This document shows positions 30,455-62,099 of a stretch of 64,000 bases of DNA, piece by piece. The notes beneath the pieces were generated by a model that was not told where the DNA came from, did no database searches, and saw only the letters and a list, made by a program, of their open reading frames with translations. Position 1 is the first letter of the stretch. Every line of letters begins with the position of its first letter. A program made the translations under genes and the position numbers. The DNA is from Enterobacter phage EC152. The stretch is taken from sequence record PP681140.1. One strand, 5' to 3'.

Positions 30455-31528
30455 TTATTCTCCTTTGATATTAAGCAATTTACGGACAGCTTCTTCGGCC
30501 TTTTGAATACGCTCTTCGTAATCACTGCCGGAGATAACCACCACCTTGCTTGTATCGTAAGATGCCCTGATCATTGTGTCAAGCAAAGAATGTGTTTCTT
30601 TACGCTTTTGTGGCGTATCCTGCAAACGAAGAGGATCAGCAACCCACGGAACCTCTGGGGTGAGGAACAGGAACAAGTCATAGAAATTGTAGCTCTCTTC
30701 ACGGCTCAGTGTCCGGAACAGTAAGTCGGAGTAGTCGATCTTATCTGCACAAACACCAGAGAAGTGCGTGATCAGGTTAGTCGTGTCGGAGAACATCACC
30801 CCACGGTCACCCCAACCTGCCACCTCCATCTCCTTCAGGCGATGCTCCATTGCAATACGCAGGTAATCCTCACGGGTCATTGCAAACTCGCTTGAATGAT
30901 ACTCACGCTCACAAATCAGTCTTCCGATCTCAGGAATCCAGGCAGCGCCGAATGTGTGCGCTAAGTGTTCGGTCATGGTGGTTTTTCCAGTGCTCTCCAC
31001 ACCGATGATAGCCACCTTCTTAATGAAGCGCTTACGGGCAGGCCACGACAAGTGGTAGAAATTCTTGTACGGGTCATTACGGATCATCGTGGCAGAAATG
31101 GGGACAGCCTTACGTTCTGCGTCGATAACAACATGCTTCGCTTCAGGGAAGAACTCACTGAAGTAAGACTCATACTCCGGCTCAGAAGAGAAAGCAAAGT
31201 CGTACTTAACGAACGGCTGCTTTTCACGGATCAGTTTTGCGTATGCGGCACCGCCTTCAGGGTATCCTGGGATATTCGACTCATCAACGTAGTCAACCTT
31301 CACGTTGTCCAAGCCCTCATCGGCAATAACATCCAGCAGGTCACGATAGCGATCAGCAAGCCCCAACTTTGGACGAATCCACTCTGGTTGTGCATCTACA
31401 AATTTCTGATCATAGGACAGGAACAGGTACAGAACACTTACCTGAGATGCAGCTTTGACAATGAAATTAATATGCCCGTTAGTCAGTGGCGCAAATTTTC
31501 CGAAGATAAGGCCGCGCGTCATAGTCAT
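30455..31528 (-). CDS. nadR: NadR-like bifunctional NMN adenylyltransferase / ribosylnicotinamide kinase (no HTH domain)
   Basis: 357 aa; N-terminal GKFAPLTNGH nucleotidyltransferase (H/T)xGH motif; C-terminal P-loop GVESTGKTT of the RNK domain. Confidence 0.65.
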   Translation of the reverse strand: MTMTRGLIFGKFAPLTNGHINFIVKAASQVSVLYLFLSYDQKFVDAQPEWIRPKLGLADRYRDLLDVIADEGLDNVKVDYVDESNIPGYPEGGAAYAKLIREKQPFVKYDFAFSSEPEYESYFSEFFPEAKHVVIDAERKAVPISATMIRNDPYKNFYHLSWPARKRFIKKVAIIGVESTGKTTMTEHLAHTFGAAWIPEIGRLICEREYHSSEFAMTREDYLRIAMEHRLKEMEVAGWGDRGVMFSDTTNLITHFSGVCADKIDYSDLLFRTLSREESYNFYDLFLFLTPEVPWVADPLRLQDTPQKRKETHSLLDTMIRASYDTSKVVVISGSDYEERIQKAEEAVRKLLNIKGE

Positions 31529-40961: not shown

Positions 40962-42269
40962 CTATTTGCCAGGGAAAGTTCTTTCGTAGAAGTCTACAAT
41001 ACGTTGGTCAACAATGATATCTTTTTCTTTGACCTTACGCAAGAGTCTTAAACCGTTTGCTGTTGTCGCACGACTGAAGGCAACATATGCCATTCCGGGT
41101 GCGAATGCGCCATACCCAAAGTCTATATTAAGTAGCGGCAATGTCAAGCCCTGAGCTTTATGAATTGTTACCGCCCATCCAAGACGAATAGGGAGAGCAC
41201 GATACTCACCAATGGTGATCTTCTCCAACTCTTCAGTAACAGTTCCATCAGGATTACGAACCTTGATCGGGTTGTATTCAACATTCTCCCACACATGAGG
41301 CTCAACATCAACAACTTTCCCACACTCAAGACGGACTTTGATACCCTCTTTTCCAAGCTCAATCACTTCACCACGAGAACCGTTGACATATTCAGGCTCT
41401 TCAAAACCTTTCGGGTCATTCACAGTGATCATGACCTTAGCCCCTTCCTTCAGATACAACTCCTCCGGGACAGGTTTTTGGGTAAAATCACCCTGCTTCT
41501 TCGCAGTGTAGAGCACCGGAAGTCCGGGAACCTCTTCAAAACGCTTCCTGTTGACCTTTTCCGCAGCAGCATTCGTAGATGTGATAGTGATTGCGTCAGG
41601 TATTGCTTCTCCACCACGATAACAAACACCGTTCAGTTCCCTCACAATCTCCGGAATACGTTGACCACGACGAAGCAGGTTAAGAATATCGGAAAAGCGA
41701 CGGCTGTTCTGACGATAAATCTTCTCAAGAAGCACCGGGTAAGGGTTAAGCTCTTGCCAGGTGTCAGAGAAACAACACAATTCCGTTGGGTGGAACTGGA
41801 AGTACATCTCCTTCTCCGAATCTGTGAGTACAGGTGGGTTCTGGAAGAAGTCTCCGAACATGCAGATCTGCAAGCCACCAAAAGGTTTATTTGGTTGTCT
41901 ACGTGCAGCACGACACTTCATGTCCATTTCCCACAGCTTGTCAGCACGGAACATACTGATCTCATCAATGATGATGATCTTTAATGCTTTACTTTTCAGC
42001 AGTCTTTTTACTTTCGGCTTTAGTTCTTCAGCATCTTTCTGAGTCGCAACACCCATTGATAATCTAAACGCCCGGTGAGCCGTCATACCATCAACGTTAA
42101 TGGCAGCAGCCCCCGTGGGGGCTACAGTTAAAACGGAACCGGCGTAAAGAGATTGGATGGTCTTAATGGTGTAGCTTTTGCCACTACCTCCGGGACCCGT
42201 AACGAATACGTTGTCACCGGACATGATAGCACCAAGGGCTGCTTCAACGCCCACACCAAAATCAGACAT
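40962..42269 (-). CDS. dda: Dda/RecD-like superfamily-1 DNA helicase
   Basis: 435 aa; Walker A VFVTGPGGSGKSY; Walker B IIIIDEISM. Confidence 0.7.
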   Translation of the reverse strand: MSDFGVGVEAALGAIMSGDNVFVTGPGGSGKSYTIKTIQSLYAGSVLTVAPTGAAAINVDGMTAHRAFRLSMGVATQKDAEELKPKVKRLLKSKALKIIIIDEISMFRADKLWEMDMKCRAARRQPNKPFGGLQICMFGDFFQNPPVLTDSEKEMYFQFHPTELCCFSDTWQELNPYPVLLEKIYRQNSRRFSDILNLLRRGQRIPEIVRELNGVCYRGGEAIPDAITITSTNAAAEKVNRKRFEEVPGLPVLYTAKKQGDFTQKPVPEELYLKEGAKVMITVNDPKGFEEPEYVNGSRGEVIELGKEGIKVRLECGKVVDVEPHVWENVEYNPIKVRNPDGTVTEELEKITIGEYRALPIRLGWAVTIHKAQGLTLPLLNIDFGYGAFAPGMAYVAFSRATTANGLRLLRKVKEKDIIVDQRIVDFYERTFPGK

Positions 42270-43555
42270 CAATCCTCCTTAGTTTCTTCTTCCAGATAGA
42301 TTTCTTCCAGGATCTCTCCTGCTGAACCTATGACCAGTACATCGGGAGCACCAACTGGTTTCGGGGTTCCTGTCAACACCTCATAACGACAGCAACGGCA
42401 CTTCTGCTGGTTGTAGTCGTAAGGGACACTTACAACATCAGCCGGGTTTACAGCTACTTCGATCAGGTTATTACCTGCGAAGCCGCCTGCGTATTCCAGA
42501 GAGGCAATGTGCAGACCTTGGCTACAAGAGACGCTTGGGTTATCTTCCACCATGTTTCGTGGCATAGAGATAATCTGGCCTTTGTAGTTAGGAACCTTCC
42601 CGGTGCGAGTATCACGAGGACCATTACTGGTGTTTGTGATCTTTTTATACGCCTTAACATCACCGTTCTCAAGGATCTCAAGATCATTGTGCTGGATAAA
42701 GTCATACAACATTTTCACAGAAGCATAAGACGGGTTGTGCATCAGCTTCTGCATGAACTTCACATAGCGCTCATCGAAAGTATCATTGTCGATATCGTTG
42801 AGGATACGTTTTGCAAGAGTGGTCTCTTGCTTCTGCCCGTGCCAGTACAGAACACCATCAAGAAGCTTCAAATCTGGACCGAGATCAACAACCTTTTCTG
42901 CCTTGAACTCTTGACCTGCACAGATCAATTCGATAGCACCCTGAATGTCACCTTCAATCAGCAACAGACCCACATCTGGGAAGATTGCATTGTCACGGTT
43001 GATCGTGTACTGATGACCAGTCGGCATCGAGATGCAAACGTTACCAAGAGTCATGATGACCACAGGGTCTTTCTTCTCAGTCAGTTCCTCAACTAAGTGC
43101 GGAGAGGCATCAGCTTTCTCCACAACCACATTTACAGGAACTTTATGCGGTTCAGGTAACAGTGTGACTGTTGCTTCAATATGCAGATCAGTTACTTCGA
43201 AAGTGACTTCCCAGCGTTTACCCTGCTTACCAAGATCCTTTACCACACCCTCGTGCTTGTCGCGACCGTCAGAGGTTTTTGCATGGTCGATAATCTTAGC
43301 ATTCTTTTTGCCCTTTGCAAAGTCACGGGCTTCACCACGACTTGCAAAGAACATAGAGGACTGAGCAGGGACGGCTTCAGAGGTGAAGCTCATATCCACT
43401 TTAGGGGGCTTGGAAGCCCCTTGGCTATCTTTCGGTACAACCATCCAGCGCCCGGTAGCGAGGACAGCAGGGGACAGCCCACGGTCAACAACCTTCATGC
43501 CGTTCTCTGCTGCAAACTTACGTGCCGCGCTGCGGGATTCAAATAAATCAGTCAT
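42269..43555 (-). CDS. rIIB: rIIB-like protein
   Basis: 428 aa; C-terminal CSQGLH…VNPADVVSVPYDYNQQKCRCCRYEV matches conserved T4 rIIB C-terminus (CSRGLH…VVSIPIDYND…C.YEV); ATGA-coupled to rIIA. Confidence 0.6.
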   Translation of the reverse strand: MTDLFESRSAARKFAAENGMKVVDRGLSPAVLATGRWMVVPKDSQGASKPPKVDMSFTSEAVPAQSSMFFASRGEARDFAKGKKNAKIIDHAKTSDGRDKHEGVVKDLGKQGKRWEVTFEVTDLHIEATVTLLPEPHKVPVNVVVEKADASPHLVEELTEKKDPVVIMTLGNVCISMPTGHQYTINRDNAIFPDVGLLLIEGDIQGAIELICAGQEFKAEKVVDLGPDLKLLDGVLYWHGQKQETTLAKRILNDIDNDTFDERYVKFMQKLMHNPSYASVKMLYDFIQHNDLEILENGDVKAYKKITNTSNGPRDTRTGKVPNYKGQIISMPRNMVEDNPSVSCSQGLHIASLEYAGGFAGNNLIEVAVNPADVVSVPYDYNQQKCRCCRYEVLTGTPKPVGAPDVLVIGSAGEILEEIYLEEETKED

Positions 43556-45546
43556 TTGGTTTCTCCTTTGCTATCAATAAATTGTCGATACTCAACCATC
43601 TCTGGCGAGTTAAAGTGCTTCAGATCAACGTACTTCAGAAGCGGATACTTGGCCTTTTTAGCAGCAAGCAGTTTCTTACCGATCCGGGTACGTGCCTTGA
43701 CGATGCGCTCCGCTTTTCTTTCAATATCATAGTAACCCCTGATATTAGAGAGGGATAGAGACATATTGACCTTTTGCACATATTCAGGGTCTTTCTTAAC
43801 TTCCACACCGAACACCGCCAGGTTATTGACCAGCAGCTTGTAGTCCGTTGTCTTGGTCAATTCCTTCAGATGATATTCCATGAGGTTTGTTTTAGCAAGC
43901 TCATATAAATCATCGCGGTCAATGATGCGGGTTTCATCAGGCAACCACCCTACCCGGTTCAGCGGGACGATGTACAGCTTCCCAGTGATACCAAGGTCTT
44001 TCAGGAAGGTATCGGACTGCTTACGTCTGTGAGTTAACCCAGAAACAGCACCCAGAGGGCAATCACCCTTCACCTGACCACCACTATAGATCATGGCAAC
44101 GTCGATGTCATCAAAATCCGCACGGGAGATGCGGTTGTGACGGATTGAACCGTCTTGCTCAATAATCCACACAGCGTGACCCGGTTCATACAGGCTATAG
44201 CCACCGTACTTTTTCTCACCTTTAACAACCGGACGTTTTTCCAGGTCAGAGAGTTTGAAGACCATGCCGACAAAGAACGGGTCATCGAGGATCTGTAAGG
44301 CCTCTGGCAGTTCGGTGACGTACACACGCTTAAAGCGCTTCTCAGACAGCCAGTTACACTTAGTACGGATGCACTTACCATCATCGTTGTATACCAGTGG
44401 TGAGCCGTTCATTAGGTCAGAATAACCGTAATCCCGGCCTGTTTCACGACGGGTGCCTTTTTCACCATAGGAGATACACTTCTCGATCTTGAACGTTCCG
44501 AAATGCTCCTTGAACTTGTCTGCAATGAATCCAGACCCATAACGGTTGGAGAAATAACCCCCAACACGCTTCATGTATTCAAGCACTTCTTTCAATGTGG
44601 TGAGCTTTTTGAGTTCTTCCACGACTTCGCTGCCGCGCTTTTCAATAGCCTCGGTAACAAACTTCTCAAGGCGATCACGGAAGCCACGGTCATTCTTCCC
44701 TTCAATCGTCCACTCACGACCTGGGTTCACATCACAATCCCCGATAGGGATGGAAACCATCATCATAGGCCAGTCTTTATGGCTGGACAAGAAGTTGGAC
44801 AGGTACGGTTGTTGTCCCATAACCACAACGCTGTCGGAGTTTTTGGATACAGACCCATACATCTCCAGCAGCCAACCACTGTCTTTATCTTCATAACGGT
44901 ACTGCACCGGGTAGGTACGGTCGTTAAGTTCAGACGTGACGAATGGGTCATTGATCTCAAACGGGAACTTAGCGTACCGCAGGCATTTTACAATGGCCTG
45001 ACGATATTTGTAAGTCTCGGAAGGATCGACGTTGAATTTTATTTCAACACCATTTTCCTCTTCTGTTTGTGATTCGTGCAGAGGAACAACCTCCGGGATA
45101 CCCTCGTTCTTGTGAACAGAGTAAACAGTTTTAATCCCGTCCTTAATCGACGTGACCGTAAACATATCCGTCACAGTAAACGGAGCTTTAGACCCGATAC
45201 CTTTTGCACCAATCAGGTCGTTAGAATCACGCTTGGTGGAAGACCCCAACATCATGAAGGTCTGGGTGACCATATTGAAATCCATACCAAGCCCTGAATC
45301 ACGCACAGAATACCACGGTTCGAGGTCGGTTGGAGAGTGGATGACAATCGCTTTCTCACGGCACCCAGCCTCCGTGTGTGAGTCTACGGCGTTGAACAGC
45401 GGTTCACGCACCGCAGCCAGAACTTTATCATTATAAATACCGTCGATCAGAATGCTGAAAGTCTCAGCATTGATTGCGATCCCAGCCTGATAGCGCTGTA
45501 CGCTACCCGTTACCTGGACCTTCTCTTCGGCACGTTGGATTATCAT
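43552..45546 (-). CDS. rIIA: rIIA-like protein with N-terminal GHKL (HSP90/histidine-kinase-like) ATPase domain
   Basis: 664 aa; N box REPLFNAVDSH, G1 VRDSGLGMD, G2 GAKGIGSKA; GAGGAG SD. Confidence 0.65.
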   Translation of the reverse strand: MIIQRAEEKVQVTGSVQRYQAGIAINAETFSILIDGIYNDKVLAAVREPLFNAVDSHTEAGCREKAIVIHSPTDLEPWYSVRDSGLGMDFNMVTQTFMMLGSSTKRDSNDLIGAKGIGSKAPFTVTDMFTVTSIKDGIKTVYSVHKNEGIPEVVPLHESQTEEENGVEIKFNVDPSETYKYRQAIVKCLRYAKFPFEINDPFVTSELNDRTYPVQYRYEDKDSGWLLEMYGSVSKNSDSVVVMGQQPYLSNFLSSHKDWPMMMVSIPIGDCDVNPGREWTIEGKNDRGFRDRLEKFVTEAIEKRGSEVVEELKKLTTLKEVLEYMKRVGGYFSNRYGSGFIADKFKEHFGTFKIEKCISYGEKGTRRETGRDYGYSDLMNGSPLVYNDDGKCIRTKCNWLSEKRFKRVYVTELPEALQILDDPFFVGMVFKLSDLEKRPVVKGEKKYGGYSLYEPGHAVWIIEQDGSIRHNRISRADFDDIDVAMIYSGGQVKGDCPLGAVSGLTHRRKQSDTFLKDLGITGKLYIVPLNRVGWLPDETRIIDRDDLYELAKTNLMEYHLKELTKTTDYKLLVNNLAVFGVEVKKDPEYVQKVNMSLSLSNIRGYYDIERKAERIVKARTRIGKKLLAAKKAKYPLLKYVDLKHFNSPEMVEYRQFIDSKGETK

Positions 45547-47078: not shown

Positions 47079-48125
47079 TTACAGAGGACTCTCGTTCAGT
47101 TTCTGCATGTACCAGCCACGAGATTTGTTGCTGATAAATTTAGCAACGTCCTTCATGGTCAGAGAGTTAGCTTCCAGCACATCGCCTTCTTCCTTGTTGA
47201 TGTCGCGGCTTACCCATGCAATGAATTCACCGATTTTGGTCTGATCGAGACCGACTTCACCAAGGCCCTGCTCCAGACGGTTTTCAGTCACAGCGTACTC
47301 AACGAACTCACGCATGTTCTGGAGCCGTACCGGGTCAACCTCTGCCAGAGTTTTCACCTTGGATACAGAGTGCTTCTCACCCTTCACCTTGAACCACAGA
47401 CCGGAGTCTTTAGCCAGTTCTGGTTGCAGTGGGGACCAAACGATACCCTCACCTACACCCTCAACACCAAAGTGTTTACCAACCGGGCAGGATGCTTCTA
47501 CCTGCATCGTCAGGGTTGTCAGATCGTTCTGTACCTGCTCAGGTTCATTGAACGGAATATTCACGGACCAGAAACCGAAGTCAAGAACACTGAAGATACG
47601 CTCTTGTGGCAAGCCGATCCCGTACTGGAAGTTTGGCGGCATCCAGTTGAGGGCGTTGCCCTCTTCATTGCGACCAACAGCAACACGGAAGATCGTGAAG
47701 AAAGGTTCAACTTCGCTTACAGCGACACCCTTCTGGATACCACGACCAGCCCACTCGCCAGCGATCTCAACCGGGAAGGAGAACGGTGTACCATTGCATT
47801 CGCACAGGTATTTAACCTGCTCCAGAAGCTCTTTGGTGTCTTTACGCACCATGAACGCAGCAAAGCCGCTGTTGTCGTCACCGACCTGAACAATGCGCTC
47901 TTTGGACTGGAAAACAACCTCGTCTTCAGAGTGGAAGACAATGCTGCCATTAGTTCCGTGGATCTTCACCGTACCAATGTACGGGATCAGATACTGATCA
48001 GGGGAAACAACTTTACGCTTGATGTTGCCATTATCATCAATACCATCAAAGGTCAGACGATCATGGATTGCCTTGATCACCTGACGGAACTGATGAGTGC
48101 TTGGGTATTTAATAGGTTTAGTCAA
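47079..48125 (-). CDS. RNA ligase, Rnl2 family
   Basis: 348 aa; nucleotidyltransferase motif I VKIHGTNGS (KIHGTN as in T4 Rnl2); TTG start 6 nt after AAGGAG. Confidence 0.65.
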   Translation of the reverse strand: MTKPIKYPSTHQFRQVIKAIHDRLTFDGIDDNGNIKRKVVSPDQYLIPYIGTVKIHGTNGSIVFHSEDEVVFQSKERIVQVGDDNSGFAAFMVRKDTKELLEQVKYLCECNGTPFSFPVEIAGEWAGRGIQKGVAVSEVEPFFTIFRVAVGRNEEGNALNWMPPNFQYGIGLPQERIFSVLDFGFWSVNIPFNEPEQVQNDLTTLTMQVEASCPVGKHFGVEGVGEGIVWSPLQPELAKDSGLWFKVKGEKHSVSKVKTLAEVDPVRLQNMREFVEYAVTENRLEQGLGEVGLDQTKIGEFIAWVSRDINKEEGDVLEANSLTMKDVAKFISNKSRGWYMQKLNESPL

Positions 48126-52507: not shown

Positions 52508-53716
52508 TTAATTCACGATTGCATCAACACCGTCAGAGAAGTTTTTACGGTACTCAGTGATAATCTCCATGACCACGGGGTATTTCTGGAGCAGTTTAGC
52601 AGGTAAACGCTCACGGTTCCCGGACATTAAGATCGCTTTACCGAAGGAGTTCTCCTGGATGAACGACATGAACACAGAACTAACGAAGTCACGGTTGGAT
52701 GCCGTATCGTGCTGCCCGAAGTTATCATACATATACTTCAAGAAGTTCGCAGCGAAAGCAATCACCTCATCGTCGGTGTACTCTTTGTTCTGGATCGCCT
52801 TGCGTAACCAGATAGACCCCTGAGAGCCGAGAGTCCACAGGATATCCGAAGAGTCAGCACCCGTATGTTTGGTGAGTTCACCACTCATAACATCCTGGAT
52901 GGAGACCATCTTCGAGATACGGGTGTGGTATTCCCACAACTCATTAGCCAGAGGCTTACCAATACTGCCCTGCAACGATGCCAGCGCCAGACGAGCAGAC
53001 AACAGGTTAGCGTCATAATCGTACAGGATATCACTTGCCGTTACCCAGGTGCGTGGTGTGGCATATGAAGGGGAGTTAATCTCCAACATCTCTTCATAGT
53101 TCTCAATCTTACCGGGGTTTGCACTCACAAAACCAACCACAGATGGATGGACATCGTTGTGCATTGCATAGTCCTGCAACCAGACAGTTGTATCGTAATC
53201 CAGTTCCACGAGAATCATACGGTTAGCAAGCGGAGCTTCCAGCATACTTACCGCAGTACCATCACCAGGGCGGTTACCTGCACCCGCAAACACAGCGCCT
53301 TCCGGGAACTTGTATGTACCGATCTTGTGATCAAGCATGATCTGATAGGCAACTTTCTGGAGATATGGCTCCGCGTGGAGCAATTCATCCAGGAATACAA
53401 TACCCTTCCAGTCCGGGTCATCAGGCCAGAAGCTTGGAATAGCGTACACAGTGCGTGTAATACCATTGTCGTCGGTTACGGGGATCTGCACCCCAACAAC
53501 GTCAGATGGTTCTTTATCCGCAAGACGGAAGTCGATCAGGTTATCATCGCGGTCACCAAACATCATGTTAGCCACTTGCTTCATTGCTTGGCTCTTGCCA
53601 AGACCAGCACCACCAAACATCATCAGGGCGCGTCCACGACGCTGGCAGAACTTCATCAGATCAGGAACATCCCGAAGTGTGATACGGTTCTCATCAAAAA
53701 TGTTACGACTCGACAT
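52508..53716 (-). CDS. MoxR/CobS-like AAA+ ATPase
   Basis: ATG 53716 with AAGGAG SD (track start 53737 is TTG); Walker A GGAGLGKS, Walker B VFLDELLHA. Confidence 0.6.
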   Translation of the reverse strand: MSSRNIFDENRITLRDVPDLMKFCQRRGRALMMFGGAGLGKSQAMKQVANMMFGDRDDNLIDFRLADKEPSDVVGVQIPVTDDNGITRTVYAIPSFWPDDPDWKGIVFLDELLHAEPYLQKVAYQIMLDHKIGTYKFPEGAVFAGAGNRPGDGTAVSMLEAPLANRMILVELDYDTTVWLQDYAMHNDVHPSVVGFVSANPGKIENYEEMLEINSPSYATPRTWVTASDILYDYDANLLSARLALASLQGSIGKPLANELWEYHTRISKMVSIQDVMSGELTKHTGADSSDILWTLGSQGSIWLRKAIQNKEYTDDEVIAFAANFLKYMYDNFGQHDTASNRDFVSSVFMSFIQENSFGKAILMSGNRERLPAKLLQKYPVVMEIITEYRKNFSDGVDAIVN

Positions 53717-53945
53717 TAGTTTGTCTCCTTTGTTCAAGATAGTTTTCGATTATCCCCTCTACATCTCCGGGGTCGATATCATTGTATAGGGTATGGATTC
53801 TCTCTGCAAGGTCTTTTGGCAATAACTTATCTGTTTGATGCACCCTACCAGCACCAAAAACCACATACCATGCACGACGACTCAGGCGGTGCCGTTGACG
53901 AGGAACGTCCCTGTTAAAATCTAAAGGCTTCACTTCTCCACCCAT
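53703..53945 (-). CDS. hypothetical protein
   Basis: 80 aa. Confidence 0.45.
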   Translation of the reverse strand: MGGEVKPLDFNRDVPRQRHRLSRRAWYVVFGAGRVHQTDKLLPKDLAERIHTLYNDIDPGDVEGIIENYLEQRRQTNVES

Positions 53946-54301
53946 ACTCGATTCTCATCACACCAGTTGTAAAGATCTTTCATGATGTCGTTGAACTCCC
54001 GCATCGGCGTATAATGGCGGATCGGATCTGCATCATGCCCCTCTGCCTCACACTCCGCAATGGAAGCCTTCCACTCAGGATATGTGGGGACATCCCGGAA
54101 ATAGATTATAATATCAACGAGATCTGCATCACACTGAACGCTTTCGTAGCTTGCCTTGTTTGGAAATTTGAATTCCAGACGACGAGCAATCTCTTTCGCA
54201 AGCTCATGAACTGTTTTATCAGTCCAATCCTCCGGACCACATTCGCCGTTACGCTTTCTCCACACATCATCAATGCGGAGGGTTTGTTTCCACTCAGCCA
54301 T
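53930..54301 (-). CDS. hypothetical protein
   Basis: 123 aa; GAGGA SD. Confidence 0.55.
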   Translation of the reverse strand: MAEWKQTLRIDDVWRKRNGECGPEDWTDKTVHELAKEIARRLEFKFPNKASYESVQCDADLVDIIIYFRDVPTYPEWKASIAECEAEGHDADPIRHYTPMREFNDIMKDLYNWCDENRVWVEK

Positions 54302-54782
54302 TGGTTATTTTCCTCAATTCAAATTCATCACCATACCCGATCATATGCCCTTTGGCAGTGATCACCTTTTCTCCGAACACGCTGCCAGTGCATTTACCAA
54401 TGAAAACTTCAGGCATATCTTCCTCAGACAGGAGAATATCCACCTTGAACTTGCCCTGGTAGTGCCTTGCATTGTAATGCGGTCCTTTATCATCTGTTTT
54501 GTGCCAGCATTTGCCGTTCCAGCGATATTTATTGTGTTTGTACCACGCATATGATACCCAGTTATCCTGCGCTATGTGGTCCACCCTGACAGTAATCAGT
54601 CGGCCTGTACTGCGAAGAAGGTCATCATATTGCTTTTCGTATAACTTCGCACGATTTTTCATATCGTTGTAATAATTCTGATAACGATCCGCCCTGTTGA
54701 CCATAACCTTGAGGATATTCTCGATTGGTGTGCCTTTCTCAAGGTGTTCTTCATAAAGCTGTTTGCTTGATTTGATATTCAT
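54294..54782 (-). CDS. hypothetical protein
   Basis: 162 aa; AAGGAG SD 5 nt upstream. Confidence 0.55.
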   Translation of the reverse strand: MNIKSSKQLYEEHLEKGTPIENILKVMVNRADRYQNYYNDMKNRAKLYEKQYDDLLRSTGRLITVRVDHIAQDNWVSYAWYKHNKYRWNGKCWHKTDDKGPHYNARHYQGKFKVDILLSEEDMPEVFIGKCTGSVFGEKVITAKGHMIGYGDEFELRKITNG

Positions 54783-54991
54783 TTAAGCTCCTTAATGGAT
54801 TCCAGGTCAAGGTAGTCATCACCACCAACCACTTTCCCGTCAGTTTTACGATACTTCACGACTTTCCCAGTCTCTGAATGCTGGTAAGACAGCCAGTAAC
54901 GAGATGTTTCGCGAAGTTTCTCAGTCCACTCCCAGCCGAGACGGGGTTTTTTGACTGTACCTTTGTGGGTGTAGCCTTGATTTCTGGACAT
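54779..54991 (-). CDS. hypothetical protein
   Basis: 70 aa; AGGAG SD 6 nt upstream. Confidence 0.5.
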   Translation of the reverse strand: MSRNQGYTHKGTVKKPRLGWEWTEKLRETSRYWLSYQHSETGKVVKYRKTDGKVVGGDDYLDLESIKELK

Positions 54992-55212
54992 TCTTTGCTC
55001 CTGTATAGAGTCACTTTGTAAAGGTTCTGATCGTAAACCAAAAACGGTCTTGACACTGGGCCGCTCAATTTGTATCTGCGATTAACATGTATGTAGCCAC
55101 GCTTCTCAAGTTTGAGAACGAGCTTACTCACTTTCCACGAAGGAATTCCCAGCAGGAACCCCATCTGTTTCTGAGTATACTTGTTTGTACGGAGCAGTGT
55201 CAAGAGGTTCAT
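54856..55212 (-). CDS. winged-helix (MarR/DNA-binding-like) protein
   Basis: MNLLTLLRTNKYTQKQMGFLLGIPSWKVSKLVLKLEKRGYIHV; overlaps 54779..54991 by 136 nt in another frame. Confidence 0.4.
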   Translation of the reverse strand: MNLLTLLRTNKYTQKQMGFLLGIPSWKVSKLVLKLEKRGYIHVNRRYKLSGPVSRPFLVYDQNLYKVTLYRSKECPEIKATPTKVQSKNPVSAGSGLRNFAKHLVTGCLTSIQRLGKS

Positions 55213-55475
55213 GGTTGTTTTTCCACATACACCGTCTTCCACTCACATTGGTAAACCTGCGTGGTTTGAGGTCTCCAACTGTCAGGGATTAGCAGGTGTG
55301 CTTGAGTGAAAAACAGCGTGTAGTACGCGACCACGCCTAAAATAAACACTGCGGCAACCTTACCCGGCATTGTGGGACCGTACTTCCTTTGCATTATGAA
55401 GGTGACCCCAACAGGGATAACCAACAAAATTATAATGAACATAAAGACTAGGATTAAAAGATGAAATGTTGACAT
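55209..55475 (-). CDS. membrane protein
   Basis: 88 aa, two TM helices. Confidence 0.55.
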   Translation of the reverse strand: MSTFHLLILVFMFIIILLVIPVGVTFIMQRKYGPTMPGKVAAVFILGVVAYYTLFFTQAHLLIPDSWRPQTTQVYQCEWKTVYVEKQP

Positions 55476-55987
55476 CAGAGATGTTCCTCCACATTAAGAA
55501 TCGCCTCATGAAACTGCTTGACTTTCGTAAGCTTAACATACATGTCATGATACTTACGGACACGCAGCAGGTCTTTGTCTCCCAACCCTTTCAACCGACG
55601 AACATCGGTATTGTGGCGAAGGTCAGCAAGTTTCACACGAGTTGCATCATAACTGCTTGCAATTCCATTGAAATACTCATCTGGTGTCTGTCCTTCTTTC
55701 TTTGTCAATAGTACGACAGCATCTTTCACACGGTTCGAGAAACCAAGTAGCACTAGGTCAGCAGCCGTTACATCGGTATCTTCCACCACATCGTGAAGAG
55801 CAGCGATAGCCATAAGCTGAAAATCATCGCTTTTCAGGTAGTGCATCACCTTCAACGGGTGGAGGATGTAGGGGTTACCACCCTTATCTTTCTGATTCAG
55901 GTGTCCTTCTGCTGCGATCTTGATAGCCAGTGCAAGTTCTTGCGCCGGGGTTAAAACTGGAATCGTGGAATTGTAAGTTCGTACCAT
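55475..55987 (-). CDS. SpoT/MESH1-like HD-domain (p)ppGpp hydrolase (small alarmone hydrolase)
   Basis: 170 aa; HPLKV…AIAALHDVVEDTD…LVLLGF…VLLTK matches the HD hydrolase domain of RelA/SpoT homologs. Confidence 0.6.
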   Translation of the reverse strand: MVRTYNSTIPVLTPAQELALAIKIAAEGHLNQKDKGGNPYILHPLKVMHYLKSDDFQLMAIAALHDVVEDTDVTAADLVLLGFSNRVKDAVVLLTKKEGQTPDEYFNGIASSYDATRVKLADLRHNTDVRRLKGLGDKDLLRVRKYHDMYVKLTKVKQFHEAILNVEEHL

Positions 55988-56979
55988 CTTTGTTGCTCCA
56001 TCATGTTAAAAGGTTTGATCTTGAGTGTATCAAAACCATCAATGTTGTCAAGCCAGAATTCATCTTTATATCCCGCCATTTCCATCATCATTAACTCTTC
56101 CGGGCTGGGTGTCTCCCCTGCCATCATATTTCTGAGTCTTTCATCCCAGCGGAAGGTGAATAATGTCTCATTCTTATTGCAAATCAACAGCGCTTCACGG
56201 GCATTTTTAATCTTAATACTACGATCACGCAGATGAAACACGCTGTGACCAATGTGGTTGCACTGTACATCAAAGTTATCCCTGTCCCTGAAGTTACAAA
56301 ACACCAAGAGATCACCGATAGATAAGGAGATACCCAGAATATCAATATCGTTTTTAGACCTCTGCATAAATTTCGAATCAAGACCATATCTGCGGAACTC
56401 CGCATTGATTGAAATGTCTGGTTCACAACGCCCCATTTGTCTGATAAGAGGCTTCAACAAGCCGAGGAACTCTCTTGTACGGCTTGAAAATCTCCAGGCC
56501 GGACTCTTTGTAAGAGCATCACCATCCCCATGACCACGGATAATGGCTGAAACATTCCCTCGTGATACCTCTTCTCTCTCGAAGGGGCTTGAGGCATAGG
56601 CCCTATCTCTAATATCTACCTCCAGACGGGCCAGAAACCGTCTATCAAGGCTTTCTCGTCGATAATCGCCCCAATCACAACCCCAGAACCAAGAGAATGG
56701 GCCATCCCTTGTGTCCACTTTCTCAAGGAGGTATCTAAGTAGTTCAGCAAGGGGATTATCTTGCATCACCGTAGGGTTAAGCCTTGAAAGAAAGTCATCA
56801 CTATTCATTCTGGGCGTGTCCCAGATACCCATCATTGCCTTCTGGCGGTACTGTTGTTCTCTTTGCCAATGTTCGATCAGGTCTCGCGTGGTCTGGTCAT
56901 CTTTTAACATGCTCCAGTCTATATCCGCAGTCACCTTCGGAACGTCTACTTGTCTAACATCAATGTTGAATTTATTCAT
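55951..56979 (-). CDS. hypothetical 342-aa protein, first gene of leftward early transcript
   Basis: start moved to ATG 56979 (track ORF extends upstream across the promoter region); no recognisable motif. Confidence 0.55.
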   Translation of the reverse strand: MNKFNIDVRQVDVPKVTADIDWSMLKDDQTTRDLIEHWQREQQYRQKAMMGIWDTPRMNSDDFLSRLNPTVMQDNPLAELLRYLLEKVDTRDGPFSWFWGCDWGDYRRESLDRRFLARLEVDIRDRAYASSPFEREEVSRGNVSAIIRGHGDGDALTKSPAWRFSSRTREFLGLLKPLIRQMGRCEPDISINAEFRRYGLDSKFMQRSKNDIDILGISLSIGDLLVFCNFRDRDNFDVQCNHIGHSVFHLRDRSIKIKNAREALLICNKNETLFTFRWDERLRNMMAGETPSPEELMMMEMAGYKDEFWLDNIDGFDTLKIKPFNMMEQQRWYELTIPRFQF

Positions 56980-56989
56980 ATTTATCTCT

Positions 56990-57035
56990 CTTTCAAACAA
57001 ATGTACACAAAGCATACACTGTAAAAAATTTGAAA
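56990..57035 (-). promoter_or_regulatory. candidate sigma70 promoter for leftward early genes (TTGATT-17-TATGCT on minus strand)
   Basis: read by eye on reverse complement of divergent intergenic region. Confidence 0.3.
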
Positions 57036-57042
57036 TCAAGTA

Positions 57043-57071
57043 TTGACAGGGTGGAATCAATCCAGGATAAT
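57043..57071 (+). promoter_or_regulatory. near-consensus sigma70 promoter (TTGACA-17-GATAAT) for rightward early genes
   Basis: -35 57043-48, 17-bp spacer, -10 57066-71; AGGAG SD at 57099-57103; ATG 57110. Confidence 0.6.
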
Positions 57072-57109
57072 TCTCCCAACAAGAACGGGAACAACCCAAG
57101 GAGTAGAAA

Positions 57110-58042
57110 ATGTTTGATGTGAAAAAGAAATTTACCGCCAGTGAGATCAAAAGTCTAGAAGAACGTTATCGTAAAAAGGTTGAGCGCACAAAGAAACGTG
57201 GCCTTGAGTTCAGCCTGACGCTTGATGACTGGTTCATGATGGGTGAGAAGCTCTTAGGTATTGGCAAATGTGACTATACCAACATGGACTTTAGTATGCG
57301 CTCTGTGCATGGTGAGAAAGACCCTCTTTATCCAACAGTTGAGCGTATCAATGATAAGAAAGGTTATGTCCGTGGTAACGTTTGTGTTGTCCTGCAACGC
57401 GCTAACGAACTGAAAGATTGCTTGGTTGACAAGAAGACGGCAATCACTATAATTGAACCACTTGATCGTGAGATTGTTCAGGCAATGATGCTGAACATGT
57501 CAAAAGAGCATATGGAACAACTGAAACTAAAATATATTCCACAAGAGGAGAAAGAAATGCCAGTAGATACTTCTGTAGTTGTAGATAAGCCTGTTGTTGC
57601 CGAGAGTTTCTCACGCTATCCAGAATCAAAAGATCGTACTGCCTCTTCTGCAATGGAACTCGCTGAACAGCATTTCCACAAGCAAGAGCCTGTTGCGGAA
57701 GAAACAACCGCCCCGGTAGAAGAAAAGCAGAAACTGCCTGATGATGTCGCTGTGGCACTGGCCTATGCCAACTACTGCAAAACATTCTCTGATGCGGGTA
57801 TGAACGTTTCTGTGACCTATGCACAGTTCAAAGCGAAGTATATTCGCAACACCTGCTCTCTGACCGGAGAGAAGTTGTCTGGAGAACCAAAGGCGATTCT
57901 GATCATGGATCTGAAAGTCGGTTTTGCTAAAGACAACTTCATTATTGTGTCGAAGAAAATGGAAACGGCGCTTACTCAACTGATCATTCAGACAGAAATG
58001 AGCCTCCCTAAAATCACTGCAATGCTCAACAAGGTGGTGTAA
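57110..58042 (+). CDS. hypothetical early protein (N-terminal HNH-like/DNA-binding-like pattern, acidic C-half)
   Basis: 310 aa; first gene after consensus promoter. Confidence 0.6.
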   Translation: MFDVKKKFTASEIKSLEERYRKKVERTKKRGLEFSLTLDDWFMMGEKLLGIGKCDYTNMDFSMRSVHGEKDPLYPTVERINDKKGYVRGNVCVVLQRANELKDCLVDKKTAITIIEPLDREIVQAMMLNMSKEHMEQLKLKYIPQEEKEMPVDTSVVVDKPVVAESFSRYPESKDRTASSAMELAEQHFHKQEPVAEETTAPVEEKQKLPDDVAVALAYANYCKTFSDAGMNVSVTYAQFKAKYIRNTCSLTGEKLSGEPKAILIMDLKVGFAKDNFIIVSKKMETALTQLIIQTEMSLPKITAMLNKVV

Positions 58043-58302
58043 TGTACGAAGACATCTTGGGCCGACCCTCGTCGGCTCCTGAACAAAAGATGATGGACAG
58101 GGGATTCATTCCCCCATTCAAAGTTGGTGACCGGGTTTGTCTCGCTAATGCTCAGAACGTGGTATCAACCATCACTGCAACGGTTTTGTTTGCTGTACCA
58201 CCTAACCCGGTGCAGCCGCAGCCAGCATTAACCTGGGGATTCCGGCTTGAAGGCTGGACAGACTTTTTACCAGGTGAAGCAATAAAACCATTTGCATCCT
58301 AG
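58042..58302 (+). CDS. hypothetical protein
   Basis: 86 aa; TAATG coupling. Confidence 0.5.
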   Translation: MYEDILGRPSSAPEQKMMDRGFIPPFKVGDRVCLANAQNVVSTITATVLFAVPPNPVQPQPALTWGFRLEGWTDFLPGEAIKPFAS

Positions 58303-58321
58303 CGCAGAACGTGTATAATCA

Positions 58322-58346
58322 GGTCATCATTAGATGGCCTTTTTTA
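58322..58346 (+). terminator. terminator-like hairpin (GGTCATC-ATTA-GATGGCC + TTTTTTA)
   Basis: 20 nt after stop at 58302. Confidence 0.4.
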
Positions 58347-58359
58347 TTTGGAGAGAAAA

Positions 58360-59796
58360 ATGTATAAAGACGAGTCGGAGATGATCTCCAAGCTACAAGA
58401 TTCAGCTTTGAAGCTGATACAGTCAGCACGTATTGCATTGCTGCAACATCGCCCATTTTACGGAACTTTGCTGAGTTCTTTGCCGATCATCGCAGACTGG
58501 AGATGGTTACCAACCGCTGCAACAGACCACCGAAACCTGTATTATAACCCTGAGTTCATTATGGGGATGCCTGCCGAACGCAAAAAGAAAGTCTTTGAGC
58601 GTATTGACAATCATCCATCCATGACACAGCAGGAAAAAGATGACTACAAAGAGTATGTCAATGTTTTCTATCGCAAGAAGACACCAAAAGAGGTGGTAGT
58701 TATCCTGATGCACGAAGTGCGCCATATCACTAACGACCACATGGCCCGTGGCAAGAGTTTCAACTCAAAAATGTACAACATTGCTGCGGATCAGTACATC
58801 AATACAGATTTGGTGGCTGTAGACCTCGGTCCAAGAAACTCGAACCTGAAGTTCTTCCCGTTAGGAGCACAGACCAAGTTTGACAAAAACAAAGAATTTG
58901 GGTTCCTTGCTTACTGTTATTGTGATTTCTCATTCCAGAACAAGACAGCGGAAGAGATTTACGAGATGATTTACAATGGCAAGACAGTTGTTGGTCATCC
59001 TATGGGTGCTCATATTGGGGATTATGACCCCGAACGAGACATCCTGGGGTACGTAGACCCACACCCAAGCCTCGGTCCAATCGCTAAAGATGAGAATCTT
59101 GCATGGTCAGCGGGGCTGATTGATGCTGCAATGAGTGCAGCAGGCGGCGAAGGTCCGAAAGAGGCACGGGAATTGGTGGCAAGATCTCGTAAACCACACA
59201 TTGATTACATGAAAATCATTAAACAGCGTATGGTTTCTCGTGTGAGATCTCACCTTTCTTACCGTAAACCTGCACGTCGATCAGGGTCTGTGACCCAGGT
59301 TCTGCGTAATTATGGTGCAATCACTCATAAGCAGAGCATCATTTTGCCGGGAAGAAAGCAATCTGAGACAATTGACATTGTGGTATGCTTCGATGTGTCT
59401 GGTTCTATCAGCCAGAAAACTATGACCCGCATCTTTAACGAGATTATTGGTCTGTGTACCCTGTATAAATGCTTCCGGGTAACACTTTTCTGCTGGTCAA
59501 CCGAAGTTGGCGAGGTAAAAGTATACACCCAGGACAATATCAAGGAGATGCTGGACTACCATGTTACCTCCACAGGCGGTACACGGGCTGGTGTTGCGTT
59601 TGAATACATCGAAAAGAATATCCCTGATGCTAAAGATGTGATAATCTTTACAGACGGGTATATTGAAGATCTCAGTTCCCGCAAAAAAGACTGGGGTAAG
59701 ATGTGGGATACACTATGGGTATTGTGTGGTCGTAACAAATCCAAGTACGACCCACCATTCGGGAGGGCAGTTGACTTAGATGAACACGCAAAATAA
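58360..59796 (+). CDS. CobT-like VWA-domain protein with N-terminal putative metallopeptidase domain (DUF2201-type)
   Basis: ATG 58360 after GGAGAG; N-terminal PFYGTLL…ATDHRNLYYNPEF…ILMHEVRHITNDH; C-terminal MIDAS motif VVCFDVSGSIS. Confidence 0.6.
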   Translation: MYKDESEMISKLQDSALKLIQSARIALLQHRPFYGTLLSSLPIIADWRWLPTAATDHRNLYYNPEFIMGMPAERKKKVFERIDNHPSMTQQEKDDYKEYVNVFYRKKTPKEVVVILMHEVRHITNDHMARGKSFNSKMYNIAADQYINTDLVAVDLGPRNSNLKFFPLGAQTKFDKNKEFGFLAYCYCDFSFQNKTAEEIYEMIYNGKTVVGHPMGAHIGDYDPERDILGYVDPHPSLGPIAKDENLAWSAGLIDAAMSAAGGEGPKEARELVARSRKPHIDYMKIIKQRMVSRVRSHLSYRKPARRSGSVTQVLRNYGAITHKQSIILPGRKQSETIDIVVCFDVSGSISQKTMTRIFNEIIGLCTLYKCFRVTLFCWSTEVGEVKVYTQDNIKEMLDYHVTSTGGTRAGVAFEYIEKNIPDAKDVIIFTDGYIEDLSSRKKDWGKMWDTLWVLCGRNKSKYDPPFGRAVDLDEHAK

Positions 59797-61123: not shown

Positions 61124-61764
61124 TGTCATGGGCCTTTCTGATTTACTTAATTGATGTACTCACCACTGACGGTACTTACGGCGGTTGGGGTTTCCTGATG
61201 TTCATCTTCGCCATTGCATACGGGGTCATGTATGCATTCCAGAAGTGCTATGAAGAAACTGACGGCAAGGTACGTTATGGATTCTTCTTAGGTCAAAACT
61301 TGGTTCTTAACCAAGACTGGAACCACTTGAAGGCTGGGGAAACCATTGTTGTGACTAATATTGACAATGATGGTACGTTAAAGGTTCGATATCCTAACGG
61401 GGAGTCCTCTAATTGGCTGCGTTTTTCTACAGTAGAGCAGATCTCCGCCCAGCGACCTAACCCTGATGCGCCGCAAGTGCCTGTTCGTGACCTGACAAAA
61501 GGACCACGTAAGGTGGCAGTTGCAGGGCTGATCGTTTGCTTCCTCGGTATTCTGTATGCTAACTTTATGCCTCAGAAAGAGACTGCGTACAAGATGCTGG
61601 CTGCATATGTAGGTCAGAATGTGGTGGAGTCACCTCGTACTCAGCAACTGGCAGACAGTACGATCAAGTATCTTGATGCTCAGATCAAGAAGTACACAGA
61701 CGAGCTTGATGCCACCGCTAAAGCAGAGCAGGCTGAGAAGGCCAAAGAGAAGGAGTCTAAATGA
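61123..61764 (+). CDS. membrane protein with C-terminal coiled coil
   Basis: 213 aa; AAGGAG SD; two TM helices. Confidence 0.55.
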   Translation: MSWAFLIYLIDVLTTDGTYGGWGFLMFIFAIAYGVMYAFQKCYEETDGKVRYGFFLGQNLVLNQDWNHLKAGETIVVTNIDNDGTLKVRYPNGESSNWLRFSTVEQISAQRPNPDAPQVPVRDLTKGPRKVAVAGLIVCFLGILYANFMPQKETAYKMLAAYVGQNVVESPRTQQLADSTIKYLDAQIKKYTDELDATAKAEQAEKAKEKESK

Positions 61765-62099
61765 CAGGAATCGCTGAACGCGTACTCCAGTCCTCAATCC
61801 GGGCGCAAGCCCGGACTGTTGATTCAGTCTTCAAGAACCTCGTAGAGGAAGTTGGGGAACTATCGCGAGCACTAAACCGCCCCTGGCGTTGTGATGAACC
61901 TGCAATTGGTGAAATTGCTGATGTTCTTAACTGTGTGATTGACTTGGCATTCTTGCTTGAGTTACAGGATTGTATCAATCCTCGTGAGGACGATATGCCT
62001 GCAATCGTAGAGACTGTTCAGCGTCGGCTTGAACACTATGTGGATAAGGAGTGTGGTAAGTGGGATCGTGGTGAAAATGCAGATCCGGAGGTTTTGTGA
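61761..62099 (+). CDS. MazG-like nucleoside triphosphate pyrophosphohydrolase
   Basis: 112 aa; VEEVGELSRAL is the MazG/HisE-type EExxE motif; AGGAG SD. Confidence 0.5.
   Translation: MTGIAERVLQSSIRAQARTVDSVFKNLVEEVGELSRALNRPWRCDEPAIGEIADVLNCVIDLAFLLELQDCINPREDDMPAIVETVQRRLEHYVDKECGKWDRGENADPEVL

Follow-up and report, generated by a model that had tools for sequence, protein, structure and literature searches.

Introduction

The closest described systems to the gene considered here are small hydrolases of the RelA/SpoT superfamily that act against toxSAS toxins or sit in phage toxin-immunity cassettes. The gene lies at positions 55475..55987, on the minus strand, of a 64,000-nucleotide stretch of Enterobacter phage EC152 (PP681140.1; this whole stretch is referred to below as the window), and encodes a small alarmone hydrolase (SAH) with a single HD domain, of the Aph1-like or PbcSpo type. 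In 2020, Jimmy et al. (PMC7229694) tested one such enzyme, the SAH of Salmonella phage PVP-SE1, which they placed in the PbcSpo subfamily and described as a ‘stand-alone phage-encoded SAH’. When co-expressed in E. coli, it neutralised five of five validated toxSASs: CapRel, PhRel2, FaRel2, PhRel and FaRel (PMC7229694, Table 1; PMC7644958). FaRel produces (pp)pApp (PMC7229694), and four of the five neutralised toxins pyrophosphorylate the CCA end of tRNA (bioRxiv 10.1101/2021.04.30.441581). In vitro, both ATfaRel, the SAH antitoxin of FaRel, and MESH1 restore aminoacylation of the pyrophosphorylated tRNA (bioRxiv 10.1101/2021.04.30.441581). It was proposed that incoming phages, by carrying such hydrolases, could escape abortive infection mediated by alarmones (PMC7229694), and CapRel has since been shown to be a defence against phages (PMC9712102).

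The second relevant body of work concerns the Aph enzymes. The family was defined with a query free of the HD motif, the C-terminal 53 residues of Aph1 (Y90-E143), and the study listed 2,769 candidates (PMC10083569). All 12 of the members tested hydrolysed ppApp, and only two had modest ppGpp activity (PMC10083569). Six residues, D24, R96, D116, R119, K133 and Y134 in Aph1, separate these enzymes from (p)ppGpp hydrolases, and an Aph1 D24R/R119A double mutant gains ppGpp hydrolysis (PMC10083569). The Aph1 class found in S. pneumoniae, Mannheimia and Pasteurella prophages hydrolyses pppApp (PMC12226406).

Here we compare the EC152 gene with these systems. The most probable reading, in our view, is that it encodes an Aph1-type adenosine 3′-pyrophosphohydrolase which counteracts toxSASs. 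The central idea, a phage SAH as an anti-toxSAS enzyme, has already been published for its orthologue, and the finding is thus real but not new.

Results

A conserved, hydrolase-only gene

The SAH open reading frame (ORF) runs from an ATG to a stop codon and encodes 170 amino acids, with a GGAG Shine–Dalgarno sequence 8 nt 5′ of the ATG. Judged by the conservation of its sequence, it is a real gene, and a chance ORF is excluded: there are 4034 homologues at E ≤ 1e-5, and tblastn finds it in 246 phage records. The product matches PHROG 990 (‘metal-dependent phosphohydrolase’) at 1.4e-64, TIGR00691 (spoT_relA) at 1.8e-14 and the SpoT equivalog at 4.4e-9. The latter two matches involve the N-terminal hydrolase region only; indeed, TIGR00691 and PRK11092 are matched over only the first ∼100 profile positions. 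In Pfam at E ≤ 1, the 170-residue protein matches HD_4, and none of the RelA_SpoT, TGS and ACT domains was found. The original prediction, made from the letters of the window alone, was of a phage-encoded RelA/SpoT-superfamily enzyme that retains the hydrolase and lacks the synthetase domain, and it quoted the strings HPLKV and ALHDVVEDTD. Both are present in the translation, the first within ILHPLKV, and the catalytic residues, domain searches and orthology agree on this description.

Sequence and fold place the protein closest to Aph1

The best sequence match in the PDB is 7smg, a ‘(p)ppApp hydrolase’ (Aph1 of a Bacteroides caccae prophage), which aligns with SAH residues 18-155 at an E value of 3.8e-25, compared with 4e-9 to 7e-7 for Rel, SpoT and MESH1. 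The Aph1 encoded in the MuF-Apk2/IapK/Aph1 module of an S. pneumoniae prophage is 48% identical (E 5e-38). The segment with which the Aph family was defined, Y90-E143, is aligned continuously by phmmer with SAH residues 102-155, and the S. pneumoniae Aph1 likewise aligns through this region.

An AlphaFold2 model of the SAH, built from a 42-sequence alignment, has a predicted local distance difference test score (pLDDT) of 92.2 and a predicted template modelling (TM) score of 0.87. The top Foldseek matches to this model are the four chains of 7smg, with target-normalised TM scores of 0.90-0.92, a root mean square deviation of ∼2 Å and 34% identity. The next fold is human MESH1 (TM ∼0.67), and ppGpp hydrolases overall give TM scores of ∼0.6-0.7. 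The first 38 PDB matches, which comprise every one with E < 0.01, are all RelA/SpoT homologue (RSH) hydrolases or SAHs. The earlier description of the protein as ‘SpoT/MESH1-like’ therefore holds at the level of the superfamily but not for its nearest relatives, which are of the Aph1 type by sequence, by fold (TM 0.92 against 0.67 for MESH1) and by the presence of the Aph signature in place of the guanine contacts.

Catalytic and specificity residues

Residue conservation was counted in an alignment of 120 SAH homologues, to which Aph1 and B. subtilis Rel fragments were added. Conservation is complete for H29, H43, H65-D66, D70, D122 and N126, and E69 occurs in 117 of the 120 homologues. The RSH metal ligands (His...His-Asp...Asp) and the Glu-Asp pair, represented here by H43, H65-D66, D122 and E69-D70, align with those of both B. 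subtilis Rel and Aph1. The HD metal-binding motif and the ED catalytic pair are encoded together by the H65-D66-V-V-E69-D70 codons (55778..55795, minus strand), and this segment aligns with LHDVVEDT in B. subtilis Rel and LHDTIEDT in Aph1. Poor conservation of the HD motif had been named beforehand as grounds for giving up the prediction; the HD, the ED and the other catalytic residues are all conserved, and on this basis the enzyme is predicted to be catalytically competent.

Five of the six residues of the Aph signature are present, as D34, D128, R131, K145 and Y146, none of which varies among the aligned homologues. For the specificity pair D34/R131, the counts are Asp in 118 of 118 and Arg in 120 of 120, and the corresponding Rel columns hold Arg and Thr. 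The D34-K35-G36 codons (55880..55888, minus strand) correspond to D24-K25-A26 of Aph1, at a place where Rel has the guanine-contacting Arg-Arg/Lys-Ser; the guanine contacts R43, R44 and S45 of T. thermophilus Rel are thus replaced by Asp, Lys and Gly. Further along, the D122-L-R-H-N126-T-D128-V-R-R131 codons (55595..55624, minus strand) encode four residues that are each found in 120 of 120 homologues, namely D122, N126, D128 and R131. By alignment, and with roles taken from PMC10083569, D122 coordinates the metal, N126 makes the contact to the ribose, and Aph1 D116 and R119 have their counterparts in D128 and R131. The K145-Y146 codons (55550..55555, minus strand) match Aph1 K133-Y134, which contact the pyrophosphate (PMC10083569), and both residues are again conserved in 120 of 120. 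A segment of ∼11 residues of B. subtilis Rel is missing from the alignment of both the SAH and Aph1.

Orthology to the PVP-SE1 enzyme

The SAH is 87% identical (142/163 amino acids) to gp220 of PVP-SE1 (YP_004894027). None of the 21 substitutions in the 163 aligned residues affects a catalytic or signature position, and the C-terminal tail is divergent. The two proteins have the same length and their genes have the same flanks, an upstream 342-residue gene labelled ‘thymidylate kinase’ and a divergent Srd-like gene. PVP-SE1 belongs, as does EC152, to the genus Seunavirus of the Vequintavirinae. Because identity, length, flanking genes and phage subfamily all agree, we regard the SAH as the orthologue of gp220, and its 87% identity makes membership of the PbcSpo subfamily probable. 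A role against toxSAS/CapRel-type toxins, which the original prediction gave as an example, has thus been shown experimentally for an 87%-identical orthologue; rescue from toxSAS toxicity, which it suggested as an experiment, has already been published for that orthologue with a positive result (PMC7229694). The rescue from FaRel by gp220 is consistent with hydrolysis of (p)ppApp, and is silent on ppGpp.

Proposed activity and alternative explanations

We propose that the SAH would act as a Mn2+-dependent HD-domain 3′-pyrophosphohydrolase which has an Aph1-type active site and is without synthetase or regulatory domains. It would strip the 3′-pyrophosphate from (p)ppApp, the product of FaRel/Tas1/Apk-type enzymes, and so restore ADP and ATP. 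From the phenotype of the orthologue, we infer that it would also strip the 3′-pyrophosphate from the 3′-terminal adenosine of tRNA (A76) after modification by CapRel/FaRel2/PhRel-type toxSASs. Since (p)ppApp and the modified tRNA both present an adenosine 3′-pyrophosphate, an adenosine-specific site could be reconciled with rescue from both classes of toxin. By destroying the products of the toxins, instead of binding the toxins themselves, the enzyme would serve as a universal enzymatic antidote, and in a real infection would allow a lytic phage to keep ATP pools and translation going in hosts that carry toxSAS abortive-infection systems. Taken as a whole, including the expected preference for adenosine over guanosine, we give this explanation a probability of about 0.7.

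A number of points weigh against it. The match to Pfam HD_4 (PF13328) scores 20.9 bits, below the gathering score of 27.2, and covers residues 21-75 only. In our view, this reflects the limits of the profile and does not speak against membership of the SAH group; a precomputed PF13328 match is present in many more distant SAH homologues. The sub-threshold score also accounts for the vague names that SAH homologues carry in the databases, where the labels are ‘metal-dependent phosphohydrolase’, ‘GTP pyrophosphokinase’, ‘hypothetical protein’ and ‘guanosine-3′,5′-bis(diphosphate) 3′-pyrophosphohydrolase’. The position of Aph1 R96, a signature residue that is distant from the active site, is G108 in the SAH, and this column holds Gly in 91, Arg in 14 and Ala in 9 of the 120 homologues. 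Work cited in PMC10083569 reports that ATfaRel, likewise a PbcSpo enzyme, degrades (p)ppGpp as well as ppApp. Strict adenosine specificity of the SAH is therefore not guaranteed, and it may have dual ppGpp/ppApp specificity. The evidence reported for gp220 consists of rescue on co-expression in E. coli only, and our literature search found no paper testing any phage SAH during infection. Finally, early expression is no more than plausible, from the company that the gene keeps in the window (an Srd-like anti-sigma gene, rIIA/rIIB, a MoxR ATPase, an NMN adenylyltransferase and an RNA ligase).

The same data can be used to weigh other explanations. If the SAH were mainly a (p)ppGpp hydrolase of the SpoT/MESH1 kind, it would collapse the stringent response of the host early and keep transcription and translation high. 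Its place in the RSH superfamily, as seen in the matches to TIGR00691, Rel, SpoT and MESH1, would agree with this, as would the guanosine-specific name of some homologue records and the dual activity reported for ATfaRel; interference with (p)ppGpp by phages is also known through other routes, namely Atd1 and the portal protein Gp8. In both sequence and fold, however, the protein resembles Aph1 much more closely than it does any ppGpp hydrolase. The guanine-contacting triplet of T. thermophilus Rel is replaced, D34 and R131, whose equivalents exclude ppGpp in Aph1, are invariant, and 10 of the 12 tested Aph-family enzymes lack ppGpp hydrolysis (PMC10083569). We therefore consider this explanation unlikely, with ppGpp hydrolysis possible as a side activity. 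On sequence grounds, a preference for adenosine 3′-pyrophosphates is likelier than suppression of the (p)ppGpp-based stringent response, which the original prediction had put forward and which becomes the weaker reading once the Aph signature is seen to replace the guanine contacts. We find it distinctly improbable that the true substrate is some other 2′- or 3′-phosphorylated adenosine (NADPH, pAp/PAPS or a defence signal) and that toxSAS rescue is a side activity. The next-closest fold, MESH1, is indeed an NADPH phosphatase (bioRxiv 10.1101/2021.04.30.441581) and has been crystallised with PAPS (9chy, 5vxa), SAHs are described in PMC9765508 as metabolically promiscuous, and the phage also carries NAD-salvage genes. 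Yet the pyrophosphate-contacting K145-Y146 pair is invariant, as is the Aph signature at five of its six positions, every tested Aph-family enzyme hydrolyses ppApp efficiently (PMC10083569), and our analysis yielded no positive evidence for an alternative substrate.

It is still harder to see the SAH as self-immunity against a (p)ppApp synthetase toxin of the phage itself, as Aph1 is against the MuF-Apk2 of temperate phages. The founding Aph1 and its S. pneumoniae and Pasteurella homologues do lie directly 3′ of MuF-Apk2 and IapK, and the gene that overlaps the SAH gene upstream has no known function. The protein encoded by this 342-residue gene, however, matches no RSH synthetase or any other model. 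With the MuF-Apk2/IapK/Aph1 module of S. pneumoniae phage IPP37 as the source of queries, tblastn with the Apk2 toxin domain found homologues only in Ralstonia, Streptococcus, Pasteurella, Mannheimia, Haemophilus and Aggregatibacter phages, and in no Vequintavirinae record. The sole match of full-length IPP37 MuF-Apk2 in the window is in the toxin domain, has an E value of 0.24 and falls inside the rIIB homologue. In addition, the PVP-SE1 SAH was called ‘stand-alone’ (PMC7229694), and most Aph homologues are not beside a toxin (Ahmad et al., PMC10083569). Immunity to a phage-borne (p)ppApp synthetase is thus largely refuted at the sensitivity of BLAST and hidden Markov model searches, and we regard it as very improbable.

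CapRel-type defences are common in Enterobacteriaceae. A narrower form of the proposal is that the adenine pocket of the Aph type serves the 3′-terminal adenosine of tRNA and not free (p)ppApp, in which case the SAH would be a dedicated phage tRNA-repair enzyme directed against the CCA-end pyrophosphate left by CapRel-type toxins. This is a tentative idea which we would not expect to be the correct one, though we rate it above the alternatives just discussed. Our literature search found no paper testing an Aph-signature enzyme on tRNA, and the Aph1 paper (PMC10083569) does not mention tRNA. An RNA ligase gene is present at 47079..48125 on the minus strand (Pfam PF09414; PHROG 548 at 1.4e-77). 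Under the tRNA-repair idea, the SAH and the RNA ligase may form a tRNA-damage repair kit, and Aph enzymes in general may be RNA 3′-end repair enzymes. The presence of both genes suggests that the phage has more than one tool for mending tRNA damage inflicted by defence systems.

A separate MazG-like gene

A second gene was linked to the SAH by the original prediction, a MazG-like all-alpha NTP pyrophosphohydrolase at 61761..62099 on the plus strand. The 112-residue ORF is present, is separate from the SAH gene and contains LVEEVGEL, which includes the EEVGEL described. An AAGGAG site precedes it, and the ATG overlaps the stop codon of the gene before it. Pfam MazG is matched at 22.1 bits, against a gathering score of 22.0, and PHROG 1247 (‘MazG-like pyrophosphatase’) at 2.7e-30. 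The motifs E29-E30-x-x-E33 and E51-x-x-D54 are invariant in 31 homologues and correspond to EEVGE (61845..61859) and EIAD (61911..61922), both on the plus strand. The predicted model consists of four long helices (pLDDT 81). From these motifs, the protein appears to belong genuinely to the all-alpha NTP-pyrophosphatase superfamily, with its metal-binding residues intact.

Similarity to characterised members is weak. In profile searches of the PDB, 1vmg was matched at 0.0087 and 2gta at 0.028, with the rest, including 5ie9, 2q73 and 7ody, above 0.1 (up to 0.7); the named proteins among these weak matches are SSO3215, YpjD, a Bacillus-conserved MazG, iMazG and MazZ. Foldseek gave no match to the model at E ≤ 0.001. 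The only biologically coherent matches of profile and model are the small house-cleaning MazG subtypes, iMazG (2q5z/2q73), 5ie9, YpjD (2gta), RS21-C6/DCTPP1 (2oie, 7mu5) and SSO3215 (1vmg), which share with it a size of ∼95-120 residues, a four-helix fold and the EExxE...ExxD arrangement; their Foldseek matches have E ∼1 and TM scores of 0.45-0.6. Because this similarity is statistically weak, neither a subtype nor a substrate can be assigned. The PDB members that are weakly matched are mostly (d)NTP house-cleaning enzymes. The protein is probably an independent nucleotide pyrophosphatase, for which (d)NTPs or non-canonical NTPs are more likely substrates than alarmones.

Atd1 of Pectobacterium phage PcCB7V is described by Ho et al. 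(bioRxiv 10.1101/2022.06.09.495361) as a MazG-like pyrophosphatase that depletes (p)ppGpp, and a cyanophage MazG reportedly cannot hydrolyse ppGpp (cited in PMC12846349); for phage enzymes of this class, (p)ppGpp degradation therefore holds in part only. Like Atd1, the MazG-like protein is a small, phage-encoded member of the all-alpha NTP-pyrophosphatase superfamily and carries motifs of the EExxE type, and PcCB7V belongs, like EC152, to the Vequintavirinae. The MazG-like protein, however, has no tblastn match in the whole PcCB7V genome. The only annotated MazG/PRA-PH-like gene in that genome is QQG33500, which encodes 86 residues and is two genes from a nucleotidyltransferase (QQG33500-QQG33502, L005:12105-13986, minus strand). 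It is likely that QQG33500 is Atd1, given its annotation and the nearby nucleotidyltransferase, as Ho et al. used a screen based on proximity to nucleotidyltransferases. QQG33500 shows no BLAST similarity to the MazG-like protein, and neither it nor the neighbouring nucleotidyltransferase has a homologue in the window. We therefore reject the MazG-like gene as an Atd1 orthologue.

These results bear on the suggestion that the SAH and MazG-like enzymes both degrade (p)ppGpp or related alarmones and work together. For the MazG-like protein, (p)ppGpp degradation is not established: it is not an Atd1 orthologue, and its nearest structural neighbours are dNTP pyrophosphatases. Nor is joint action with the SAH supported: some 6 kb separate the two genes, which lie on opposite strands and are distributed independently. 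PcCB7V has the SAH and lacks a MazG-like homologue, and among Klebsiella phage records 147 have the MazG-like gene and 32 the SAH. The MazG-like gene had also been assigned to a ‘rightward early operon’. It does lie on the plus strand and so is rightward; ‘early’ and ‘operon’ do not find support, as the promoter scan described below was not enriched over shuffles, and a hairpin and promoter-like sites intervene.

Genomic neighbourhood

In a megablast search, positions 54000..58100 matched Escherichia phage vB_EcoM_LNA4 (92% identity, with 92% of the query covered), Cronobacter phage GAP31 (94%, with 84% covered), Escherichia phage 4MG and Salmonella phage PVP-SE1 (85%), all of the genus Seunavirus. 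By these similarities, EC152 is a Seunavirus-like myovirus of the Vequintavirinae. PVP-SE1 and GAP31 have the same gene order, in which a leftward block made up of the 342-residue gene, the SAH gene and small ORFs is separated by a short divergent gap from a rightward block that begins with the Srd/anti-sigma-like gene.

The 342-residue gene upstream of the SAH gene (55951..56979, minus strand) matches PHROG 10920 over its full length at 4.9e-155, and its stop codon lies 37 nt inside the SAH ORF. Downstream of the SAH gene, an ORF of 88 strongly hydrophobic residues (55209..55475, minus strand) matches PHROG 18381, of unknown function, at 6.9e-7. Its ATG overlaps the SAH stop codon as TGATG, which suggests translational coupling between the two. 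Given these overlaps, the 342-residue gene, the SAH gene and the 88-residue ORF probably share a single leftward transcript and are translated together from it.

A near-consensus sigma-70-like site, TTGACA-17-GATAAT, is present at 57043..57071 on the plus strand, matching at 11 of 12 consensus positions; it is identified by its match to the consensus only. The site lies in the 130-nt divergent intergenic region, 5′ of the rightward gene that starts at 57110, and a promoter is annotated at the equivalent position in PVP-SE1. A scan of the window for promoters and terminators was not enriched over shuffles and gave no convincing leftward promoter. The interval from the 57043..57071 site to the MazG-like gene contains a hairpin resembling a terminator (58321..58340) and additional promoter-like sites. 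No tRNA genes were found in the window.

Both RefSeq and PHROG 10920 label the 342-residue gene ‘thymidylate kinase’. Its product has no match in Pfam, NCBIfam, PADLOC or the PDB, whether searched singly or as a nine-sequence profile. The nine detectable homologues are all from Seunavirus-like phages, with identities from 98% down to 36%, a sign of fast divergence. On this evidence, the ‘thymidylate kinase’ annotation looks unfounded. In PcCB7V, the SAH forms the C-terminal ∼185 residues of QQG33411 (L003:17533-18774, plus strand), a 413-residue coding sequence annotated as ‘GTP pyrophosphokinase’. Its N-terminal ∼230 residues have no tblastn match to the 342-residue protein, and a Rosetta-stone link between the SAH and the 342-residue gene through this fusion is rejected, as the N-terminal part is unrelated. 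By eye, that part resembles an HNH/AP2-type homing endonuclease, and Pfam finds nothing there. QQG33411 could be a real fusion, an in-frame insertion of a homing endonuclease or the result of a mis-called start. The PHROG 990 and 30929 profiles, at 374 and 413 positions, are likewise much longer than the SAH domain.

Several other genes of the window deserve mention. For the first rightward gene (57110..58042, plus strand), the matching PHROGs go by the names ‘HNH endonuclease’, ‘decoy of host sigma70’ and ‘Srd anti-sigma factor’; the gene has no Pfam family, and its database names conflict, being ‘anti-sigma factor’ in GenBank and ‘HNH endonuclease’ in RefSeq. The divergent region is flanked by a MoxR-like ATPase gene (52508..53737, minus strand; PHROG 1297) and by a gene for a protein with DUF2201 metallopeptidase and VWA domains (58348..59796, plus strand; Pfam PF13203/PF09967), two types that usually act as a pair. 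RefSeq and PHROG call the latter ‘HNH endonuclease’, which is contradicted by Pfam. The rIIA (664 residues, HATPase_c_3) and rIIB (428 residues) homologues are adjacent at 42269..45546 on the minus strand, and the rIIB ORF is the site of the marginal match (E 0.24) to the Apk2 toxin domain, which is a chance one. At 30455..31528 on the minus strand is a gene for a NadR-like bifunctional nicotinamide mononucleotide (NMN) adenylyltransferase (PHROG 3462 at 1.3e-139; Pfam CTP_transf_like and AAA_28). Genes for Nampt, ribose-phosphate pyrophosphokinase and PnuC are found as well in relatives such as PcCB7V, which suggests a set for NAD+ salvage with the potential to counter defences that deplete NAD.

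Discussion

Enzymes that destroy the product of a toxin, and not the toxin, provide broad-spectrum counter-defence, as illustrated by the neutralisation of five unrelated toxSASs by one phage SAH. The value of the present analysis lies mainly in annotation. Orthologues in Vequintavirinae phages that are candidates for therapy can now be named as Aph1-like SAHs, orthologous to a tested anti-toxSAS enzyme. The increments over what was known are the Aph1 signature in this lineage, the finding of no partner synthetase, and the lack of relationship between the MazG-like gene and Atd1; on present evidence, there is no ground for listing the MazG-like gene among alarmone enzymes. A modest new point is that the SAH of the PVP-SE1 type carries a (p)ppApp-specificity signature that was defined three years after the enzyme itself was tested. 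This signature predicts specificity for adenosine 3′-pyrophosphates, and not control of the stringent response.

How the SAH relates to the known enzymes can be summarised as follows. MESH1, SpoT and Rel share with the SAH the HD fold, the metal ligands and the ED catalytic pair. Their similarity to the SAH is much weaker than that of Aph1, and the SAH has neither their guanine-contact residues nor the ∼11-residue Rel segment. Aph1 is the best match in both sequence and fold, with 34-48% identity, all of the catalytic residues and five of the six signature residues in common, and both enzymes are phage-encoded. Aph1 has a compact fold that lacks helices of the (p)ppGpp hydrolases, and the SAH shares its loss of ∼11 residues relative to Rel. 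The SAH differs from Aph1 in having ∼17 extra residues at the N-terminus and ∼15 at the C-terminus, and in the Gly at the R96 position. The setting also differs: Aph1 belongs to a temperate-phage toxin-immunity cassette of MuF-Apk2, IapK and Aph1, whereas the SAH belongs to a lytic myovirus in which no synthetase was detected. ATfaRel, the SAH antitoxin of Cellulomonas marina FaRel, was placed by Jimmy et al. in the PbcSpo subfamily together with the PVP-SE1 SAH, and each of the two neutralises all five toxSASs, by hydrolysis and not by binding (PMC7229694). ATfaRel, however, is a member of a tricistronic bacterial toxin–antitoxin operon, whereas the SAH described here stands alone, in a phage.

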